Source: Thermoplasmata archaeon
GTDB lineage: Archaea; Thermoplasmatota; Thermoplasmata; Lutacidiplasmatales; UBA184
Assembly (NCBI GenBank): GCA_022750435.1
Contig: JAKIVS010000009.1
Coordinates: forward strand, 6,909 to 70,908
Reading direction: 5' to 3'
Length of the DNA stretch: 64,000 nt
Notes under the pieces: model-generated
Database searches by the model: none
Seen by the model: only the letters and a program-made list of their open reading frames with translations
Told to the model about the DNA's origin: nothing
Made by a program: the position numbers and the translations under genes
Part shown: positions 4,452 to 53,161 of the stretch, in pieces
How the letters are laid out: every line of letters begins with the position of its first letter
How positions within the stretch are numbered: position 1 is the first letter of the stretch

Positions 4452-5375
4452 TCAGAGCGCTTCCGGGCCACGGGGGCCCGAAGCGATGACCTCGAAGGTG
4501 AGCTCGACGTCGGCCGGAGGCGAGGGAGCCCCGCCCGCCATGCGCGGGTAGAGCGGGGGCATCTCCTCCGGCGGCTCGGGCCCGAGCGAGCTCGGAACCG
4601 TCGGCGGGACCCTCGGGAAACTCTCCTCGAGCGCGATCTGCGGGATCCGCTGGGAATCGAGCAGCGTCTCGACCGGGGTGAGCATCGACTCCTCGATGTG
4701 GTCCGCGATCCGGCTCGCCCAGACGACGGGCACATGTCGGACCGGCATCCGCCGGTCCTGCCGCAGAAGTTCCTCGTTGTCGAGGACCGTGAGCGTCGCC
4801 TGGCGGCGCTGGTGCTTCTCGACGAAGGCGTCGAGGAAGTGGAGGCCCGCGATCGCGCGTTCCGCGACGGCGCGGCGTTCCGCCTCGACGGCGAACGGCT
4901 TGACGACGAAGACGCTCAGCACCTCGGCCGAGCGGCTGGCGGCCTCCAGGACGACCGGGAGGATCCCGGTCCCGCTGGCACCGCCCAGAGAAGCGACGAC
5001 CGTGACGAAGGTGGCCCCGTCGAACACGCGCTCGAGCGCGGGCTCGGCGGCGCGGGCGATCTGGCCGGCAGCGCCCGCGGTGGCGGGGACGCCGAAGGCC
5101 GGGCCGTTGTCGGAGCCGAGGCAGATCCGCCGGTCGAACTCCTCCGAGTCGGCGACCCTCGGGTCGCAGTTGATGGCGACGGTCTCGACGAAGCGGAGAT
5201 GGCGGCGCGCGATCTCCCGGCCGATCCGGATGCCTCCACCGCCGACGGCGGCGAGCAGGAACCGGACGTCGTGTCCCAGCCGTACGGTGGGCTCCCAGAG
5301 CCCCACGTCGACCTCACTCGTCCGCGTGTTCGTTCCGTCCCGGTCGTTCTCCCGTCGTCCGTTGGCCTCGCGCAT
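4452..5375 (-). CDS. FtsZ/tubulin-superfamily GTPase-like protein, N-terminal GTP-binding domain only (307 aa)
   Basis: This is the inner part of ORF 4452..5828, starting at ATG 5375 (MREANGRRE...); the upstream part of that ORF is an Arg/Gly/Pro shadow frame. Motifs appear in FtsZ order: AVGGGGIRIG (G-box), AINCD, SLGGASGTG (tubulin signature GGGTG[ST]G), KPFAVEAERR (FtsZ PFxFEGxxR), LDNEELL. No T7 loop or FtsZ C-terminal domain is recognisable, and the tail is Pro-rich. Confidence 0.7.
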   Translation of the reverse strand: MREANGRRENDRDGTNTRTSEVDVGLWEPTVRLGHDVRFLLAAVGGGGIRIGREIARRHLRFVETVAINCDPRVADSEEFDRRICLGSDNGPAFGVPATAGAAGQIARAAEPALERVFDGATFVTVVASLGGASGTGILPVVLEAASRSAEVLSVFVVKPFAVEAERRAVAERAIAGLHFLDAFVEKHQRRQATLTVLDNEELLRQDRRMPVRHVPVVWASRIADHIEESMLTPVETLLDSQRIPQIALEESFPRVPPTVPSSLGPEPPEEMPPLYPRMAGGAPSPPADVELTFEVIASGPRGPEAL

Positions 5376-5416
5376 CGCCACCACCCCCGCCGTGAATCGT
5401 CCGAATCCCCCCTGGG

Positions 5417-5920
5417 CTACCGGCCCAGGACCCCCTTTCGCTCGAGCTCCTCCGACGTGTCGCGGAGCTCGCGCAGCCTCTCCCGGCTGGCGTTCGCGCT
5501 CCGGACGGCCGAGCGGGACCGCTCGACGAGCTCGCCGACCTTCGCCTCGAGCTCGCCGCGACGGACCAGCTCTGCGAGGACGTCCGCGAGATCGCGGCCG
5601 TTCCCGTTCAGCTCGCCGTAGGCGCGCAGCGTCTCCACCTCGTCCGACCGGAGCCGGACCGGCACCTCGACCAGGTCCCGGACCGAACGGGTGGGTACGC
5701 TTTCGACGGCCGTGAGGGCCCGCGCCCGCAGGAACTCGCGCAGCGCCTCGCGCACCAGAGCCGACCGGTTGCGGAACTCCCCGCTGGCGACAAACGAGTC
5801 GACCAGCTGGAGCTCCTTGCGGTGGCACCGGAGCGCAATGCGCTCGTCCTCGGGACCGATCCGTGCTACGGCCGGAGCGTGCGGCTCCTCCGAAACACGG
5901 CGCGGGGGTTTGTCGAACAC
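5417..5920 (-). CDS. Ribbon-helix-helix (CopG/ParG-like) DNA-binding protein with helical E/R/L-rich C-terminal half
   Basis: 167 aa with a GTG start. RIALRCHRKELQLVDSFVASGEFRNRSALVREALREFL fits the beta-alpha-alpha RHH pattern. The C-terminal ~90 aa (LAELVRRGELEAKVGELVERSRSAVRSANASRERLRELRDTSEELERK) looks coiled-coil-like. The gene ends 41 nt upstream of the FtsZ-like gene. Confidence 0.7.
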   Translation of the reverse strand: MFDKPPRRVSEEPHAPAVARIGPEDERIALRCHRKELQLVDSFVASGEFRNRSALVREALREFLRARALTAVESVPTRSVRDLVEVPVRLRSDEVETLRAYGELNGNGRDLADVLAELVRRGELEAKVGELVERSRSAVRSANASRERLRELRDTSEELERKGVLGR

Positions 5921-5935
5921 GGCTGACGCGAGCTA

Positions 5936-5960
5936 TGCAAAATCATTCTACTTAAATTAT
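5936..5960. promoter_or_regulatory. AT-rich island upstream of the RHH gene (candidate bidirectional promoter)
   Basis: GCAAAATCATTCTACTTAAATTAT is by far the most AT-rich stretch nearby. Its left half is ~25 nt from GTG 5920 on the minus strand. The TTAAATTAT box is ~26 nt from an ATG at 5982 on the plus strand. Confidence 0.4.
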
Positions 5961-6395
5961 CGGCCATCCCCGCGACGAAAAATGACCGGTAGGACGGTGT
6001 CGACACCGGCCGACGTTGTCGAACAATTCCGGGCCGACGCGAAGGGGGCTCCGAACTCGAAAACCGTGCGTATAACCGGCTCGAAATTCACCGGAAATTG
6101 GCTCATGGCCGTTCGGAGGGGATTCCCGACCTGGTTGCCGTCGGCGGTGTCGTCGCGCGGCGCGGTCCCGACCCAGTTCTCGAGCTGCGCGGGGGCGGAC
6201 CCTTCGGCGCGAGGGTGGCGGATTTCCCCACCGTGGACACCCATGCCATCGTCGAGGGAGCGGGGGTGGAAATGCTGAGAGTTTCGAGGGGCCGTAGGTC
6301 CCCCCCGCGGGGAGGCGAAGGGTCCTCCCCAGCCCCGCCGGCCGCTCGACGTCCGAGACCGGCAGGTTCTTGGCTTCCGGTTCGCTCGGTGCACC

Positions 6396-47076: not shown

Positions 47077-49011
47077 TTAAAGAGCGCCGGGGTCGGCGGC
47101 CACGTCCTCGTCCGGCTCCTCGGCTTCTTCGCCCCGCTCGTGGCCGATGACCCGCACGGCGACGCCGCGCTTCAGGCGTCCCATCTCGCCCGGCGCGAGG
47201 AGGAGGCGACCGACGGCCAGCAGCGTGTCGTCCTTGTCCACCAGGAGGGCGCTCGCGCCGGGAACGAGCGTGAGGTCCCCGCCGATCACGAATCGGGAGA
47301 ACAGGCTACGGCCCTCACGGACGAACGGCACCGCGTCGGCGTCGACGACCACCCGGCTCGCCGGGGACGGGAGCGTGGCGTGAAGGAGCTGCGCCCCGCG
47401 CCACGTCGGTCGCACAAGCCCGTCGGTGCCCACGTGGAAGAGGATGACGCCGTCCCGCTCGACCCGGCGAAGACGCCCGGTCTTCGGCGAGCGCCGGCCG
47501 AGGAGGTTCGCGGCCCGCAGCGCGGTCGCCGCGGCGGGCCCGTACCGCCAGGCAATCAGCGCGTCGACTTGCCGGCGGGTCCACTCGGGCGACCAGTCGC
47601 GCTCCCGGTCGACGGCGAGCCCCTCGAGCGCTTCCCCGAACCCACCCGCGCGGGGTCGGGCGTCGAACTCGTCCGGCGCGAGGTAGCAGCCGGCGGGATA
47701 GACGTCCGCGAGCTCGATCGGAACCGCCCCGACGGGACGGAGCACCTCCCAGTCGAGGGTCGCCCCATCCCGGGTCTGGGCCGGCAGGGTCCTGAGCGCG
47801 ACCGTCGTGAGGGGAACGAAGGGGAGCGTCCGGTACGGTCCGCGACCCTGCTTGAATCCATCGAGGCGGGCGAGGAATCGAATCACGGACGGCCGCAGGC
47901 CGGTCGTCGCCACCGTCGACCGGAGCGTCCGCCGGCTCTCCGGCTCGGTAGGCAAGAAGATCCGGGTCCCCCGGATCGCCGCGCGGAGGCCGGCGGCGAG
48001 GGCGGGGTGTCCGGTGGAGCGGCGCTCGGCGAGCTCCCAGAGGGTTCCGTCGCGGATCGCCTGCCGCACCCGGCCCATCTCCTCGGAGCAAACGAGCAGG
48101 TTGTGCTCGGCGATCCGTCGTTCCCGTTCACTTCCGGGGAGCCCCGCGACTTCGGTGAGCGGTACCTCCGCGCACAGCATGCACCGACAGACCCGTTCCT
48201 GGATCGAATCGATGGAGATGCTCCCCTCGGGAAACATGAGCGTCCCGCGACGTGCGAACTTGAGGTACGCCGAGGAGTCGAACAAGTCGACACCGAACAG
48301 CGAAGCGAAGGCGAACGTCATCGGATGACCGGTCCCGAACAGGTGGACAACGCCCTCCGGCGCGAGCCCGGGCCGCGCCGCAATGAGCACCCGGGCGAGG
48401 TCGGCGAACCGGTAGCGCTCCATCAGCGGCACGACGCCGCCGACGGCGAGCACGTCGCCGGTCATCGACGCCGCGGCGGCGGACTCGCGGCGAAGCTCCG
48501 GGTCGAGACCACCCTGGACCGGGACCGCGAGGAGCCCCGCCCGGTCCGCCCGGGCCTTGGTCGCGCGCGCCGTCGTCTCGGCGACGCCCCGGGCCGCGTC
48601 CTCCCGGGGGGCGTCGGGTTCGACGAAGATGTCGAGCACCGTCGCGATGTCGGTGCCGATGCGGCCCTGGAAGTGGAGGATCTGCTCGTGGGTGACCTCG
48701 ACGTGGCCGTACGCGTGCTGCTGAAAGGCCCCGGAGTCGGTCATCACCGGCCCGTCGAAGTCGATCAATCCGTGCACGCCCTTCTCCTCGGCGATCTCCC
48801 GGAGCGGCGGCGTTCGCCAGATGATGTACGACGACGTGATCACCGCGCCGAGGCCGAAGCGGCTGCGGAGCTCCTTCGGATGGACCGGCTGCCGTGCGAG
48901 GTCGGGGTGGACCACCGGCAACAGCGCCGGCGTCTCGATCGGTCCGTGGGGAGTAGAGAACCGCCCGATCCGCGCGAGACCGTCCCGCGCGAGGAGCTCG
49001 AACTCCCCCAT
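47077..49011 (-). CDS. tgtA: Archaeosine tRNA-guanine transglycosylase (ArcTGT) with C-terminal PUA region
   Basis: 644 aa. FELLARDGLARIGRFSTPHGPIETPALLPVV, TDSGAFQ, the zinc site CRCMLC and a long C-terminal extension typical of archaeal TgtA are present. Confidence 0.9.
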   Translation of the reverse strand: MGEFELLARDGLARIGRFSTPHGPIETPALLPVVHPDLARQPVHPKELRSRFGLGAVITSSYIIWRTPPLREIAEEKGVHGLIDFDGPVMTDSGAFQQHAYGHVEVTHEQILHFQGRIGTDIATVLDIFVEPDAPREDAARGVAETTARATKARADRAGLLAVPVQGGLDPELRRESAAAASMTGDVLAVGGVVPLMERYRFADLARVLIAARPGLAPEGVVHLFGTGHPMTFAFASLFGVDLFDSSAYLKFARRGTLMFPEGSISIDSIQERVCRCMLCAEVPLTEVAGLPGSERERRIAEHNLLVCSEEMGRVRQAIRDGTLWELAERRSTGHPALAAGLRAAIRGTRIFLPTEPESRRTLRSTVATTGLRPSVIRFLARLDGFKQGRGPYRTLPFVPLTTVALRTLPAQTRDGATLDWEVLRPVGAVPIELADVYPAGCYLAPDEFDARPRAGGFGEALEGLAVDRERDWSPEWTRRQVDALIAWRYGPAAATALRAANLLGRRSPKTGRLRRVERDGVILFHVGTDGLVRPTWRGAQLLHATLPSPASRVVVDADAVPFVREGRSLFSRFVIGGDLTLVPGASALLVDKDDTLLAVGRLLLAPGEMGRLKRGVAVRVIGHERGEEAEEPDEDVAADPGAL

Positions 49012-49036: not shown

Positions 49037-49750
49037 TTAACGTTGGCGCGCCGCCGAACGTCCGTCGTCCCACGACGCCCGGATCCGGCGGAGAAGGTCG
49101 ACGAGCATCGGGAGCGTCAGCTTCCGCGTGTTGGTGTTCTGCGGGCTCGGGTGGAACGACGCCCAGACGATTGGCCGACCCGGCCCGAGCGTCGCCGCCG
49201 CTCCGTGGGCGAACGCCGTCGTCGGTCGTGGGACCTGGAAGTGGGCCGCCGCGGCATCGAGCGTCGCCTCCCAGGCAAACCCACCGAGCGCGAGGTAGGC
49301 GCGGGCGTTCGTGAGGAGGGAGAGCTCCCGGTCGAGGAATGGGCGGCACGCGGACGTCTCCTCCGGTCGCGGCCGGTTGTCGGGCGGGACGCAGCGAACG
49401 GCCGCGGTGAGGTAGAGGTCCCGGTAGGACAGTCCGTCGCCGCGGCGCACCGACGTCGGCTGGCTCGCGAACCCCGCGTCGTAGAGGGCCCTCACGAGGA
49501 ACGCGGCGGACCGGTCCCCCGTGAAGACGCGGCCCGTGCGGTTCGACCCGTGGGCGGCCGGCGCGAGCCCGACCGCGACCAGGCGGGCCGAGGGATCTCC
49601 GAACCCGGGCACGGGACGACCCCAGTACTCTTCCGCCCGAAACTCGCGCTTGCGCTCCTTCGCGACCCGCTCGCGGTACGCGACGAGTCGCGGGCACCTC
49701 CGGCAGCCGACCACCTCCTCCCGCAACCGCTGCAACGTATCGTCGGCCAT
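49037..49750 (-). CDS. Uracil-DNA glycosylase, family 5 (UDGb)-like, Fe-S type
   Basis: 237 aa. CRRCPRL is present, and motif A reads GLAPAAHGSNRTGRVFTGD (GLAPA rather than the family-4 GEAPG). HPSPQN is also present. Confidence 0.82.
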   Translation of the reverse strand: MADDTLQRLREEVVGCRRCPRLVAYRERVAKERKREFRAEEYWGRPVPGFGDPSARLVAVGLAPAAHGSNRTGRVFTGDRSAAFLVRALYDAGFASQPTSVRRGDGLSYRDLYLTAAVRCVPPDNRPRPEETSACRPFLDRELSLLTNARAYLALGGFAWEATLDAAAAHFQVPRPTTAFAHGAAATLGPGRPIVWASFHPSPQNTNTRKLTLPMLVDLLRRIRASWDDGRSAARQR

Positions 49751-49769
49751 CGGGAACGTCGCTCGACGC

Positions 49770-49786
49770 GGTCACCGGAAGTGACC
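49770..49786. promoter_or_regulatory. Perfect inverted repeat GGTCAC-n5-GTGACC abutting a TATA-like box
   Basis: GGTCACCGGAAGTGACC lies in the UDG/bactofilin-like divergent gap, immediately upstream of TATCCTATTA (49787-49796). It is a candidate operator. Confidence 0.35.
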
Positions 49787-49796
49787 TATCCTATTA
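49787..49796 (+). promoter_or_regulatory. TATA-like box about 27 nt upstream of ATG 49821
   Basis: TATCCTATTA; the spacing implies a leaderless mRNA for the bactofilin-like gene. Confidence 0.4.
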
Positions 49797-49820
49797 GAAG
49801 CCGGAACCGTCGCTCTCTCG

Positions 49821-51044
49821 ATGACGGACGTCGAAGTACCGAAGGGTGGCCGGGTCGTGCTCGGCGCGGTGGACGGGAACCTCACCGCGGGCAAATCCGT
49901 GCGGATCGAGGGGGCTCCCGGCACGGGCGTGGTCGTCTCCGGAGATGCGAAGTTCGAGGGAGACGCCACCCTCATCGGCGACTTCCGGTGCCGGCGGTTC
50001 AAGGCGAAGGGCGGACGAATCCAGGCCGACGGGGCGGTCCGCGCCAGCGAGGAGTTCACGGCCGACGATTCGGTCGTGGAGGTCCGCGGACCGCTCGAGT
50101 CGCCCCGCGTGGAGGTCGAGCGGGAGCTGAATCTGCACGCGGACTCGAAGGTCGGCCGGCTGGACGTCGGAGGGACCCTGGAGGCGGACGGCGCGGTCGA
50201 AGGGGAGCGTCTTCACATCGGGGGCCGGGTCCGGATCGCCGGACGGACGACCGCCGAGGAGGTCAGCGTCGGGGGCCGGGCCGAGCTGGGCGAGGTCCGT
50301 CTCGCGCGGTTCGAGGTCGGCGGCGTCGGCGTCGTCGGGGGCGGGACGATCCGCGACCACGTCGAGGTCGGCGGGAAATTCTCTTCGACCGCACCGCTCA
50401 CGTTCGGACGTCTCGAGGTCGGCGGCAGCGTGGCCCTCGCCGGTGGCTCCAAGGGAGGATCGATCGAGGTCGGGGGCGTGATCCGGGTCGCGGGCGACCT
50501 GACGTTCGACGGCCTCGAGGTCGGGGGCATCGCCGAGATCGCCGGGAACGCCGCCGGTCGCGGGGTGGAGGTCGGGGGACAGTTCCGGGTCGACGGGAAC
50601 TTGACGCTCACGGACGGCATCGAGGTGGGGGGCCGCGGGACGGTCGGGGGCGATGTGGCGGCCCGCGACCTCGAGGTCGGGGGCGAATTCCGCGCCCGCA
50701 AGGCCATCTTCTCGGGCCGCGCCGAGGTCTCCGGGTCGATCCGTACCGAGCTCGGGCTCCGGGCCGCCTCCATCGAGATTCGGAAGAAGTCGCAGGTCCG
50801 GGGGCCGCTCGTCGCCGACCGGGTCGTCCTCGGTCGGGGTTCGGAAGCCGAGCTCGTGTTCGGCGGCAAGGTCGACGTCGGCTCCGATGCCCGGGTCGGA
50901 CGGATCGTGGCCGACGAGGTCGACATCGGTTCGGGCGCCTCGGTCGGCCGCGTGGAGTACGTCCGGTCGCTCAAGATGGACCGAACCGCGCGGACCGATG
51001 AGCCGCCCGTCCAGATCGCGAGCCGTCCGGCGCCGCCGGTGTAG
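49821..51044 (+). CDS. Bactofilin-like (DUF583, polymer-forming cytoskeletal) beta-helical repeat protein, about 20 windings
   Basis: 407 aa, nearly all made of 17-18-residue units of the type x-[LIV]-E-V-G-G-x-h-x-h-x-G-x-h-x-x-x. An example run is LEVGGSVALAGGSKGGSIEVGGVIRVAGDLTFDGLEVGGIAEIAGNAAGRGVEVGGQFRVDGN. There are no TM helices and no signal peptide, and the C-terminal tail is Pro-rich. Confidence 0.7.
   Translation: MTDVEVPKGGRVVLGAVDGNLTAGKSVRIEGAPGTGVVVSGDAKFEGDATLIGDFRCRRFKAKGGRIQADGAVRASEEFTADDSVVEVRGPLESPRVEVERELNLHADSKVGRLDVGGTLEADGAVEGERLHIGGRVRIAGRTTAEEVSVGGRAELGEVRLARFEVGGVGVVGGGTIRDHVEVGGKFSSTAPLTFGRLEVGGSVALAGGSKGGSIEVGGVIRVAGDLTFDGLEVGGIAEIAGNAAGRGVEVGGQFRVDGNLTLTDGIEVGGRGTVGGDVAARDLEVGGEFRARKAIFSGRAEVSGSIRTELGLRAASIEIRKKSQVRGPLVADRVVLGRGSEAELVFGGKVDVGSDARVGRIVADEVDIGSGASVGRVEYVRSLKMDRTARTDEPPVQIASRPAPPV
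50163..50735 (+). repeat. Intragenic 51-bp (17-codon) periodicity, at least 11 units
   Basis: The xVGG tetrapeptide recurs at residues 115, 132, 149, 165, 182, 199, 216, 233, 250, 268 and 285, then EVSG at 302. The DNA core GAGGTCGG(G/C)GG recurs every ~51 bp. Confidence 0.8.
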
Positions 51045-51046
51045 CC

Positions 51047-51385
51047 GTGCCGGCGTTCGCCTCGATGGACCGCCAAAGGCCCGGCGCCGGGCGCCGGCGC
51101 GAGCGGACCGACCTGTTCGCGACGATCCTTGAGGTCGTCAAGCGCTACGAGGGCGACGGGCGGATCACGCGGATCTCCTACGGCGCGGGGATGCCGGTCG
51201 ACCGCCTTCGGTCGTCGGTGGAGCGCTTGGTCTCCCTCGGGCTCGTGAAGACGACCCCGCAGGAAGGCTACGTCACCTACGACATCACCGCCCGTGGTCA
51301 GGAGTTCCTCGACACCTACTGGAAGATGCGAGGGTTCACCGAGCTGCTGGAAGCGCGGACGCCGCCCGAACCGCACCACCGGTAA
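51047..51385 (+). CDS. Winged helix-turn-helix DNA-binding protein
   Basis: 112 aa, starting at GTG 51047 (2 nt after the bactofilin-like stop) or ATG 51065. RTDLFATILEVVKRYEGDGRITRISYGAGMPVDRLRSSVERLVSLGLVKT...YDITARGQEFL fits a small archaeal wHTH. Confidence 0.6.
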   Translation: MPAFASMDRQRPGAGRRRERTDLFATILEVVKRYEGDGRITRISYGAGMPVDRLRSSVERLVSLGLVKTTPQEGYVTYDITARGQEFLDTYWKMRGFTELLEARTPPEPHHR

Positions 51386-51428: not shown

Positions 51429-52166
51429 CTAGACCTGGCGCCACCGCAGGCCCCGCGCGATCATCACGACGGAGCCGAGCGCGAAGGCACTGAGGACGAT
51501 CGTCGCCTCGAGGACCGTCGTTGCGTTGGCGGCGAGAAGTCCGGTCAACAGCACCGTTCCCCACGTGATCGGCCAGAGGTAGGCGATGATCCGCAGCGGC
51601 TCGGGGAGGAACGTCACCGGATAGAATACGGGGGCGAAGAACGTCATGACGATCCCGACGAACTGCGCGATCTGATTGATCTGTCGCGGGGTGCGGCCGA
51701 ACACCCCGATGGCGAAGCCGATGCCGAGCGTGGACGCCCAGACGAGGAGGAATCCGACGAACAGGACCGGTACAATTGAGAGCGGGAGGACCACCCCGAA
51801 CGCCAGCACGCCGGCCGCGATCGTCACCGCGGCGGAGAGGAGCGAGAACGGGAGGAGGGAGAGGGCGAGCGAGCTGACGTAGACGATCGGCGAGACCGGA
51901 AGGGAGACCCACAGGTCGTACACTTTGCTCTGCTTGTCGTTCCCGATGCTCTGGGCGACGACGTTGACGTTCAGGAGGGCCATCTCCATCATCACCGCGC
52001 CCACGACGACCTGGGTGCGCAGCCCCGGCTGGACGATCGCGCCGAGAAAAAACAGGAACCCCAGCGGGAACAGGACCACGAAGCCGAGGATCAGGCCGAG
52101 CTCCCGGAGGTAGGTACGCAGCGCCGCGACGGTCGCGACGCCGATCTGCCGAACCGTGGAGATCAT
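51429..52166 (-). CDS. ABC-2 type transporter permease
   Basis: Starts at ATG 52166 (MISTVRQIGV...), overlapping the ATPase stop (ATGA). It is 245 aa with six hydrophobic helices and sits inside shadow ORF 51429..52853. Confidence 0.8.
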   Translation of the reverse strand: MISTVRQIGVATVAALRTYLRELGLILGFVVLFPLGFLFFLGAIVQPGLRTQVVVGAVMMEMALLNVNVVAQSIGNDKQSKVYDLWVSLPVSPIVYVSSLALSLLPFSLLSAAVTIAAGVLAFGVVLPLSIVPVLFVGFLLVWASTLGIGFAIGVFGRTPRQINQIAQFVGIVMTFFAPVFYPVTFLPEPLRIIAYLWPITWGTVLLTGLLAANATTVLEATIVLSAFALGSVVMIARGLRWRQV

Positions 52167-53161
52167 GCGAGCGCCTCCGACGGCGCGACCACCCTGAGGT
52201 ACGCATCCTCGAGCGACACGGGGCGGAGGGAGGCCATCACCCCGAGCGACGTGAGACGGGCGAGTTCGTCGACCGTCTCGCGCTCGAACGGGTCGGGGAC
52301 CTCGAACCAGACCGTCGTCGCCTCGCGGAGGCTGACCTTCCACCGAGCTTCGAGGGCGCGGACGGCCTCGGTGCCCGCGGAGGTCAGCCGGTCGGCGTGG
52401 TGGACGATGAGCCGGCCCCGGTACGGGAGTCGGCCCCGGATCTCGTCGACCGTGCCGCTCACGACGAATCGTCCCCCGGCGATGACGACGACGCGGTCGG
52501 CGAGGACTTCGGCCTCCTCGATGTAGTGCGTCGTGAGGAGGATGCCGAGTCCGCGGTCCCGGAGGGTCCGGATCAGCGTCCACACCTGGCGCCGGGCCCC
52601 GGGGTCGAGTCCCGTGGTCGGCTCGTCGAGGAGCATCAGCCGCGGCGTCGCCGCGGCCATGGCGACCGCGACGAGGACCCGCCGCTTCAGTCCCCCGGAG
52701 AGTTCCCGGACGATTTGGCTCCGCTGCTCGGTGAGCCCAACCGCCCGCAGGATTCCATCGACCTCCCGGTCGAGCGTGGCGAGCTCCATCCCTTTGAGCC
52801 GGCCGAAGCAGCGCACGTGCTCCTCGACCGTCAACTCGGAGATCGGCTCGCACTCCTGCGGGATGACCGACAAGAACCGTTTCGCCCGGACGGGGTCCGC
52901 GACGATGTCGACGCCGGCGACGTGGATCGACCCCTCGGTCGGGAGGAGCTGGCCGGCGAGTTGGCGAAGGAACGTACTCTTTCCGGCCCCGTTCGGACCG
53001 AGGAGGGCGACGACCTCACCGGAGGAGACCGTGAGGTCGAGAGCGTCGTTCGCGAGGATCTCGCCGCCGACCGGCCCGCGGCGCCGGTAGCGTTTGCAGA
53101 CCCCCTTGGCGAGAAGGACGGGGACCCCGCGAGCGGGACCCGGAACCGAGGAAGCGCTCAC
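52163..53161 (-). CDS. ABC transporter ATP-binding protein
   Basis: Walker A GPNGAGKST, signature LSGGLKRR and Walker B LMLLDEPTTGLD are present. Confidence 0.9.
   Translation of the reverse strand: MSASSVPGPARGVPVLLAKGVCKRYRRRGPVGGEILANDALDLTVSSGEVVALLGPNGAGKSTFLRQLAGQLLPTEGSIHVAGVDIVADPVRAKRFLSVIPQECEPISELTVEEHVRCFGRLKGMELATLDREVDGILRAVGLTEQRSQIVRELSGGLKRRVLVAVAMAAATPRLMLLDEPTTGLDPGARRQVWTLIRTLRDRGLGILLTTHYIEEAEVLADRVVVIAGGRFVVSGTVDEIRGRLPYRGRLIVHHADRLTSAGTEAVRALEARWKVSLREATTVWFEVPDPFERETVDELARLTSLGVMASLRPVSLEDAYLRVVAPSEALA

Follow-up and report, generated by a model that had tools for sequence, protein, structure and literature searches.

The window analysed here, a 64,000-nucleotide (nt) stretch of contig JAKIVS010000009.1 from a Thermoplasmata archaeon (assembly GCA_022750435.1), contains a gene for a 407-amino-acid (aa) bactofilin-like beta-solenoid protein, hereafter the rod, which is followed 2 nt downstream by a gene for a 112-aa winged helix-turn-helix (wHTH) protein and preceded by a palindrome next to a TATA-like box (Table 1). 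The conserved cis site, the rod gene and the wHTH gene form one two-gene operon module, which is widespread in uncultured Thermoplasmata of peat and soil. The best explanation, to which we assign a probability of roughly 60%, is an autoregulated module of a rod and a DNA binder that is functionally closest to the BacR-BacEF system of Bacillus subtilis. Three traits distinguish it: a length-conserved rod about 3.5 times the size of the canonical domain, a near-obligate DNA-binding partner, and a sharply conserved putative operator; if the explanation is true, the module constitutes an undescribed archaeal link from a cytoskeleton-like protein to DNA. Few cytoskeletal families are as poorly understood as the bactofilins, and in archaea, to our knowledge, only the haloarchaeal halofilins have been studied. 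Our literature search found no paper connecting bactofilins with Thermoplasmata, with a winged-helix partner or with this gene pair.

Table 1. Features of the rod-wHTH operon, in coordinates of the 64-kb window. BRE, transcription factor B recognition element.
Feature	Positions	Strand	Remarks
Palindromic operator-like site, GGTCAC-cggaa-GTGACC	49770..49786	.	Instance of GGTnnTCAC-N5-GTGACC
BRE/TATA-like element, TATCCTATTAG (family consensus CCTAnCCCTATAGA)	49787..49797	+	Directly abuts the palindrome
Rod gene, 407-aa cytoplasmic single-chain bactofilin-like beta-solenoid (predicted)	49821..51044	+	About 22-23 predicted windings, roughly 11 nm
Most regular central windings, residues 112-298	50154..50714	+	Eleven x-h-E-V-G-G-x-h-x-h-x-G units
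Acidic ladder, residues 165-285	50313..50675	+	Glu directly before VGG in eight consecutive windings
Pro-rich C-terminal tail, residues 391-407 (...DEPPVQIASRPAPPV)	50991..51041	+	Family motif PPxKVxxLPxxP[LFIV]
Gene for 112-aa winged-helix protein (HTH_45, Sso10a/AspA-like predicted fold)	51047..51385	+	GTG start

Linkage of the rod and wHTH genes

The rod gene ends with a TAG stop codon at 51042-51044 and the wHTH gene begins with GTG at 51047, behind a GGTG at 51038-51041; neither gene has a paralogue within the 64-kb window. All ten Thermoplasmata-type loci retrieved with the rod as seed (L001-L009 and L091) carry the wHTH gene, and the loci with this pair are located in several unrelated gene neighbourhoods. 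The wHTH gene lies 3' of the rod gene, either overlapping it or no more than 39 nt away, in L001, L003, L004, L006, L007, L009 and L091; in L002 and L005 it had been missed by the gene callers and was recovered by tblastn, and in L008 the order of the two genes is inverted. The 475-aa homologue P0007 (L002:6100-6543) is an artefact, a fused call produced by a frameshift near the rod 3' end; the other frame of L002 encodes a normal tail (...PPVRVDKLSPFPL and a stop codon), followed by an intact wHTH open reading frame (ORF).

For a reciprocal test, a metagenome scan was seeded with the wHTH alignment; of the more than 391 loci obtained, the 80 best were taken. Among these, a full-length rod gene was found directly upstream in 46 of the 46 loci with at least 1300 nt of upstream sequence; where 300-1300 nt were available, the 3' part of the rod gene was detected by tblastn in 24 of 25 loci and by eye in the remaining one (L081), giving 25 of 25, and hence a rod in all 71 wHTH-seeded loci whose upstream sequence reaches 300 nt or more. 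The median equivalent gap between the two genes is 2.5 nt. The pairing of rod and wHTH is close to obligate; the preliminary description of this stretch, which had placed a 112-aa wHTH gene 2 nt behind the rod stop codon and proposed the protein as a dedicated partner, is borne out on the first point by the coordinates and a Pfam HTH_45 match (see below), and on the second by the rod-seeded and wHTH-seeded loci alike.

The palindrome and the promoter

For 55 related loci, the 90 nt that precede the rod start codon were aligned. A CAC-N5-GTG motif occurs between positions -70 and -30 in 51 of the 55 (chance expectation, 0.011 per locus), and in 47 it is located at -49±1. The consensus of 47 distinct upstream sequences is GGTnnTCACCGnnnGTGACCTAnCCCTATAGA, in which the conserved element is TCAC-N5-GTGA, followed by CTATAGA; at -29..-24 from the rod ATG, where the family has a conserved TATAGA, the sequence in the window reads TATTAG. 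The palindrome core TCAC/GTGA is essentially invariant around a variable spacer, with half-site centres 9 bp apart, or approximately one helical turn, and no compensation is seen at the fifth arm position (C/C in 16 cases, C/G in 2). Variants of the site are found in L004 (AGGCAC-N5-GTGCCT), L006 and L008. Within the 64-kb window, the perfect form GTCAC-N5-GTGAC occurs once, and sites with up to one mismatch number 3 against 3.25 expected, so that the single site taken alone is not significant; it is not a chance match because it is conserved at a fixed position across related loci. The inverted repeat abutting a TATA-like box that was noticed in the preliminary description thus exists as noticed, and it recurs in relatives as an operator-like site beside the box.

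The invariant core and the lack of compensatory change point to sequence-specific recognition by a dimeric protein and not to a hairpin; an RNA hairpin reading of the inverted repeat was rejected on account of the invariant arms, the non-compensatory fifth position and the downstream TATA-like box. From its sequence context, the palindrome looks like a protein operator beside a leaderless archaeal promoter. An archaeal TATA box is usually located about 25 nt from the transcription start; given this spacing, the TATA-like box at -29..-24 probably drives a leaderless or nearly leaderless mRNA, and the right half-site of the palindrome would abut or overlap the BRE position. A scan for sigma-70 promoters and intrinsic terminators found none, as expected for an archaeon.

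The other side of the promoter gap is occupied by a gene of the uracil-DNA glycosylase (UDG) superfamily (Pfam UDG, E 2e-28; 49037..49750, minus strand), which is divergent from the rod operon. The two start codons are separated by 70 bp (49751..49820). Measured from the UDG ATG, the palindrome occupies the positions 20-36 nt upstream, where it could also affect the UDG promoter in this lineage.

The rod protein and its family

The 407-aa product is identical to NCBI entry L3K00_06045, annotated as "hypothetical protein"; elsewhere in the databases, rod and wHTH proteins are annotated as "hypothetical protein", "CcmA (bactofilin family)" or "predicted transcriptional regulator". The rod consists largely of a repeat of about 17 residues. 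[VI]GG occurs at residues 116, 133, 150, 166, 183, 200, 217, 234, 251, 269 and 286, in accordance with the earlier observation of an xVGG tetrapeptide recurring from residue 115 to 285; the self-identity of the protein peaks at lags of 17, 34 and 51, shows lesser maxima at 6 and 11, and has no peak at 12 or 18, unlike a hexapeptide helix. The 51-bp periodicity that had been suggested for the DNA (G+C content of the window, 70%) was recovered as well: at a lag of 51 the in-frame self-identity reaches 0.455, whereas 500 codon shuffles gave 0.368±0.018 and never scored as high. Tandem Repeats Finder called no 51-bp array in the rod DNA because the repeat copies are too diverged. The highest Kyte-Doolittle mean over 19 residues is 0.96; the rod therefore has no transmembrane helix and no signal-peptide-like segment, as the preliminary description had held.

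By the Pfam test, the rod is a member of the Bactofilin family (PF04519), with E 1.1e-10 and 42.1 bits over three stretches (gathering score 27.9), that departs from the canonical architecture. Other Pfam matches, to LbH_EIF2B (18.6 bits against a cut-off of 54) and DUF5649, fall far under their cut-offs. When the rod was cut into quarters, each quarter matched Bactofilin (E 2.5e-4 to 0.056), and the sole match to another family was a marginal one of the last quarter to Hexapep_GlmU (E 0.069). A profile built from 21 family members and compared with the sequences of the Protein Data Bank (PDB) matched, behind a phage tail-fibre protein that is considered below, the bactofilins TtBac of Thermus (6RIA, E 6.6e-4) and BacA of Caulobacter (2N3D, E 9.3e-4), with the left-handed beta-helix (LbH) of eIF2Bε next at E 1.4e-3; hhalign against a TtBac fragment gave E 8.7e-5 at a probability of 60%.

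An AlphaFold2 model based on the family alignment has a predicted local distance difference test score (pLDDT) of 97.1 and a predicted template-modelling score (pTM) of 0.88. According to DSSP the model is all-beta, with strands that span residues 4-386 and are grouped every 16-18 residues; it contains no helix anywhere, and no catalytic or other extra domain. The DSSP string and the sequence period together suggest about 22-23 windings, for which the earlier estimate of some 20 contiguous windings was right or slightly low. Beta-solenoids rise about 4.8 Å per rung, and the predicted length of the rod is therefore about 11 nm, compared to about 3 nm for a six-winding bactofilin. Length differences within the family are insertions or deletions of ~16-17 or ~33-34 residues, which by the repeat length correspond to one or two whole windings. 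A core of about six windings between disordered N- and C-terminal tails, as in canonical bactofilins, was not found; the rod has no N-terminal tail and a C-terminal tail of 20 residues.

Several other identities were considered for the rod. An LbH hexapeptide acyltransferase was rejected on account of the 17/34/51 period, the LbH scores under cut-off and the lack of a catalytic or nucleotidyl domain, and a secreted adhesin for want of a signal peptide or transmembrane segment; together with the Pfam result, the quarters and the matches to 6RIA and 2N3D, this sustains the preliminary assignment as bactofilin-like. A defence-system reading was rejected, since the rod has no PADLOC match and the wHTH protein only a weak LmuC match (18 bits), as was a phage-gene reading, for which the PHROG matches are weak (E about 1e-3 to 1e-4).

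Two further features recur across the family. The EVGG columns are kept in the family alignment, and most members have 7-11 [ED][VIL]GG units; on a beta-solenoid, the acidic ladder of the rod would align eight carboxylates ~4.8 Å apart; cation binding is one possible use of it, a DNA-like face for the basic wHTH protein another. The Pro-rich C-terminal tail, already pointed out in the preliminary description, is part of a family-wide motif at the extreme C-terminus, which most of the ~70 listed representative tails (50% clustering) share, with P403 and P406 near-invariant; it is a candidate docking peptide.

A profile search run exhaustively over 1.84 billion representatives returned 167 proteins at E ≤ 1e-30, approximately 70 of which are full-length, end-to-end matches of 380-448 aa. 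The named family members belong to Thermoplasmata, to two metagenome-assembled genomes (MAGs) of Thermoprotei and to one MAG labelled Bathyarchaeota; a single-protein scan of species-representative genomes yielded one locus only, L009. Eight matches are giants of 2,360-4,515 aa with 7-22 stretches that match the rod profile (P0117, P0137, P0149, P0152, P0153, P0155, P0158 and P0160); P0153 (2,450 aa) matches Pfam Bactofilin with 76 bits, and the only match of P0117 (4,425 aa) is an autotransporter PATR repeat. Judging from these profile matches, very long bactofilin-like solenoids are not unique to this locus.

The wHTH protein

The 112-aa protein matches Pfam HTH_45 (PF14947) with E 4.5e-11 and 43 bits (cut-off 25.5). 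Its score against NCBIfam Sso10a_fam, 33.6 bits, is under the cut-off of 60, and the protein is therefore not an Sso10a orthologue; the nearest PDB sequence is Sso10a-2 (4HW0), at E 0.007. No DUF4004 match was found among the Pfam matches of the wHTH protein. The AlphaFold2 model (pLDDT 85) consists of a disordered basic N-terminus, helices at residues 14-34, 40-47 and 51-63, a wing at 67-80 and a C-terminal helix at 82-103. Foldseek ranked Sso10a-2 (template-modelling (TM) score 0.77) and Sso10a (1R7J) first, next AspA, the centromere-binding protein of plasmid pNOB8 (TM 0.79, root-mean-square deviation (rmsd) 2.0 Å), and then MarR regulators; the predicted fold is thus that of proteins which bind specific DNA sites or chromatin and form dimers through the C-terminal helix. 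The close relatives form 521 clusters, of which all named ones are Thermoplasmata, and they are typically 60-75% identical, whereas the partner rods are only ~40% identical. The wHTH protein is constrained over its whole length, including the N-terminal and C-terminal helices.

Comparison with known systems

The rod shares with the canonical bactofilins, such as Caulobacter BacA and Thermus TtBac, the Pfam match, windings of ~17-18 residues, the absence of a nucleotide-binding site, a cytoplasmic location and a short terminal tail. It differs in having 22-23 predicted windings in one chain instead of six, and in lacking an N-terminal tail or membrane-targeting peptide while possessing the EVGG ladder and the C-terminal PPxKVxxLPxxP motif. 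Bactofilin filaments are reportedly non-polar, according to the title of a preprint ("Bactofilins form non-polar filaments"). In the solved TtBac filament, the subunits are arranged head-to-head (PMC11459167), whereas the single-chain rod would be one continuous polar, head-to-tail solenoid. The earlier picture of a covalently pre-polymerised rod is therefore an analogy that fits in part only, since a single chain makes a polar helix.

The closest functional analogue, alike in function and organisation only, is the BacE/BacF-BacR system of B. subtilis, in which elongated bactofilins and a small DNA-binding protein are also encoded in one operon. BacR (YhbD) is a dimeric DNA-binding protein with an effect on bactofilin operon expression; the bactofilins bind BacR and displace it from the DNA (PMC13649987). 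BacEF-like proteins are elongated molecules of 13 windings, and relatives of them exist in archaea (PMC11459167). The two systems differ in the regulator, which here belongs to HTH_45 (Sso10a-like) and in Bacillus to DUF4004; in gene order, since the regulator gene follows the rod here and precedes the bactofilins in Bacillus; and in the cis site, a sharp palindromic operator-like element here, whereas none has been found for BacR. In addition, the rod has 22-23 predicted windings compared to 13, the host is an archaeon, and an interaction between rod and wHTH is one that we infer.

The halofilins HalA and HalB of Haloferax volcanii are likewise archaeal proteins of the bactofilin superfamily, with a reshaped fold (PMC11459167). 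HalA consists of two six-winding subdomains that are joined head-to-head through an alpha-helical hairpin, and HalB has a transmembrane domain and an extracellular domain of 5-10 windings (PMC11459167); in contrast, the rod model contains no helix and the rod no transmembrane segment, and no wHTH partner has been described for the halofilins. On the DNA-binding side, the wHTH model superposes on Sso10a and Sso10a-2 (1R7J, 4HW0) and on AspA (4RS8, 5K5Q) over ~80 residues with TM scores of 0.73-0.79 and rmsd of 1.5-2.5 Å, including a C-terminal helix after the wing; yet sequence likeness is marginal (E 0.007), and where AspA is partnered by ParB and ParA, the wHTH protein is partnered by a beta-solenoid rod. 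Both AspA and SegB have palindromic binding sites that precede the cassettes encoding them (PMC5120986).

Proposed mechanism and alternatives

In an autoregulated module of this kind, a wHTH dimer would bind the palindrome and, by its position beside the BRE/TATA region, would autoregulate the operon. Rod and wHTH protein would be made together and contact each other, as suggested by the 2-nt junction, the strict co-occurrence and the strong conservation of the whole wHTH protein. The rod could then sequester the wHTH protein from DNA and thereby provide feedback on expression, as BacE and BacF do with BacR, or else the wHTH protein could act as an adaptor that ties DNA to the rod or to a filament scaffold. 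Autoregulation or DNA tethering by the wHTH protein is a well-motivated proposal, and the module may reveal an independently evolved archaeal counterpart of the partner switch between BacR and bactofilins in Bacillus. A more specific version, which we advance as a doubtful extension, would make the gene pair and the palindrome a minimal, NTPase-free link between DNA and a cytoskeleton-like structure: an AspA/Sso10a-like dimer would nucleate on TCAC-N5-GTGA and dock on the polar rod of ~11 nm, either on the Glu ladder as a DNA-like surface or on the C-terminal Pro-rich peptide, and the outcome would be either tethering of the chromosome to a rod-based scaffold or control of rod abundance by a DNA-versus-rod partner switch.

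Several observations weigh against the autoregulated rod and DNA-binder module. The divergent loci L003, L005, L007 and L009 keep the gene pair without the palindrome. In L090 (L090:3001-4227 and 4478-6272), the single exception to the pairing that was seen, a distant Thermoprotei homologue of the rod (MEM3833033.1, on a contig of 36% G+C) has no wHTH gene within 3 kb; its neighbours are genes for a TnpB/Cas12f-like protein and a resolvase. An insertion may have removed the partner, unless it was always absent from this lineage. Contact of the wHTH protein with the palindrome and with the rod is inferred, and an operator just upstream of, or abutting, the BRE suits an activator as well as a repressor. 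On the side of the rod, there is no N-terminal membrane-targeting peptide, and homology to canonical bactofilins is, by the sequence comparisons, distant: the top PDB match of the family profile is chain g of 9CUY (E 5.5e-8), a tail-fibre beta-helix protein of Pectobacterium phage φTE (PMC11972413). When the rod model was compared with the PDB by Foldseek, nothing reached significance (best E 0.088, to tapirin) and TtBac was not recovered; the non-significant top matches were mostly right-handed helices, with LbH proteins lower in the list, which is only a hint on handedness. The Foldseek result carries no information on the family or handedness of the rod, since long repetitive solenoids defeat the method.

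As an alternative, the pair could be a partition-like or DNA-anchoring module, in which the wHTH protein is a centromere-binding adaptor in the manner of AspA or SegB, the palindrome serves as a centromere-like site as well as an operator, and the rod, alone or polymerised, is the scaffold that tethers or positions the chromosome, as the bactofilins BacNOP together with PadC are reported to do for ParB-parS in Myxococcus. The superposition of the wHTH model on AspA fits this possibility, as does the layout of a cis palindrome, a large structural gene and a small DNA-binder gene, which resembles that of partition cassettes. The target of AspA is a palindrome of 23 bp in front of the gene for AspA itself (PMC5120986), beta-helix repeats occur in some SegB orthologues, and a connection between bactofilins and ParABS has been discussed (PMC12284271). 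The tight coupling and strict co-occurrence of the two genes would also suit a stoichiometric complex better than a simple regulator. Nevertheless, ParA and ParB genes, as in the AspA-ParB-ParA cassette, were absent next to the pair at all loci examined; no NTPase, of ParA type or otherwise, is conserved there, and the neighbourhoods vary by locus. The palindrome is single, without iterated repeats or a second perfect site in the 64 kb, the wHTH fold matches Sso10a and MarR regulators too, and polymerisation or membrane binding of the rod is an assumption of such a module, which we consider unlikely. It is distinctly unlikely, in turn, that the wHTH protein only regulates the operon, and perhaps other genes, without ever touching the rod, which would then be a shape or scaffold protein acting through its C-terminal Pro-rich peptide. 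A conserved operator by the promoter would suffice to explain the co-inheritance, the PPxKVxxLPxxP motif suggests some other docking partner, and the 70-bp gap in the window also serves the divergent UDG gene; against this, dedicated regulators are rarely coupled 3' of an abundant structural gene with gaps of 0-15 nt across lineages at 40% identity, and the far stronger constraint on the wHTH protein than on the rod, along its full length, hints at interfaces beyond DNA.

A further possibility, that the rod is not a bactofilin at all, is very improbable. It would then be a generic Gly-rich beta-solenoid that arose by convergence, as an enzyme-like left-handed helix, a fibre, an adhesin or a DNA mimic, and the Pfam match would reflect periodic composition. 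The tail fibre 9CUY does outrank TtBac, there is a weak PHROG tail-fibre match, the profile also matches the giants of 2.4-4.5 thousand residues, one of them with the autotransporter PATR repeat, and Foldseek was uninformative; Gly-rich solenoid repeats evidently cross-match in profile searches, as the 9CUY match illustrates. Yet Bactofilin is the sole Pfam family over its curated cut-off and the sole one matched by every quarter of the rod, the period of 17 with sub-peaks at 6 and 11 is not the strict 6/12/18 of a hexapeptide helix, and LbH_EIF2B stays far under its cut-off; the rod lacks a signal peptide, a transmembrane segment and an extra domain, and at least one of the giants is itself a Pfam Bactofilin match.

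Neighbouring genes

Beyond the UDG gene, the window contains a tRNA-guanine transglycosylase (TGT) gene of 644 aa (47077..49011, minus strand); the syntenic 644-aa gene of L001 has the Pfam domains TGT, TGT_C2 and PUA and is, in our reading, of the archaeosine type, which speaks for an archaeal source of the window. The order TGT-UDG-rod is common to L001, L002 and L091. Downstream of the operon, an ABC-2 permease is listed as a 474-aa ORF (51429..52853, minus strand), the 5' end of which is probably over-extended: its syntenic counterpart in L001 is a gene of 245 aa, and as listed the ORF runs into the gene for the ABC ATPase (52163..53161, minus strand). The segment 53223..55947 carries genes for a rhodanese, a 54-aa YHS-domain protein and a YHS-domain P-type (copper-type) ATPase, a set that is syntenic in L001, L002 and L091.

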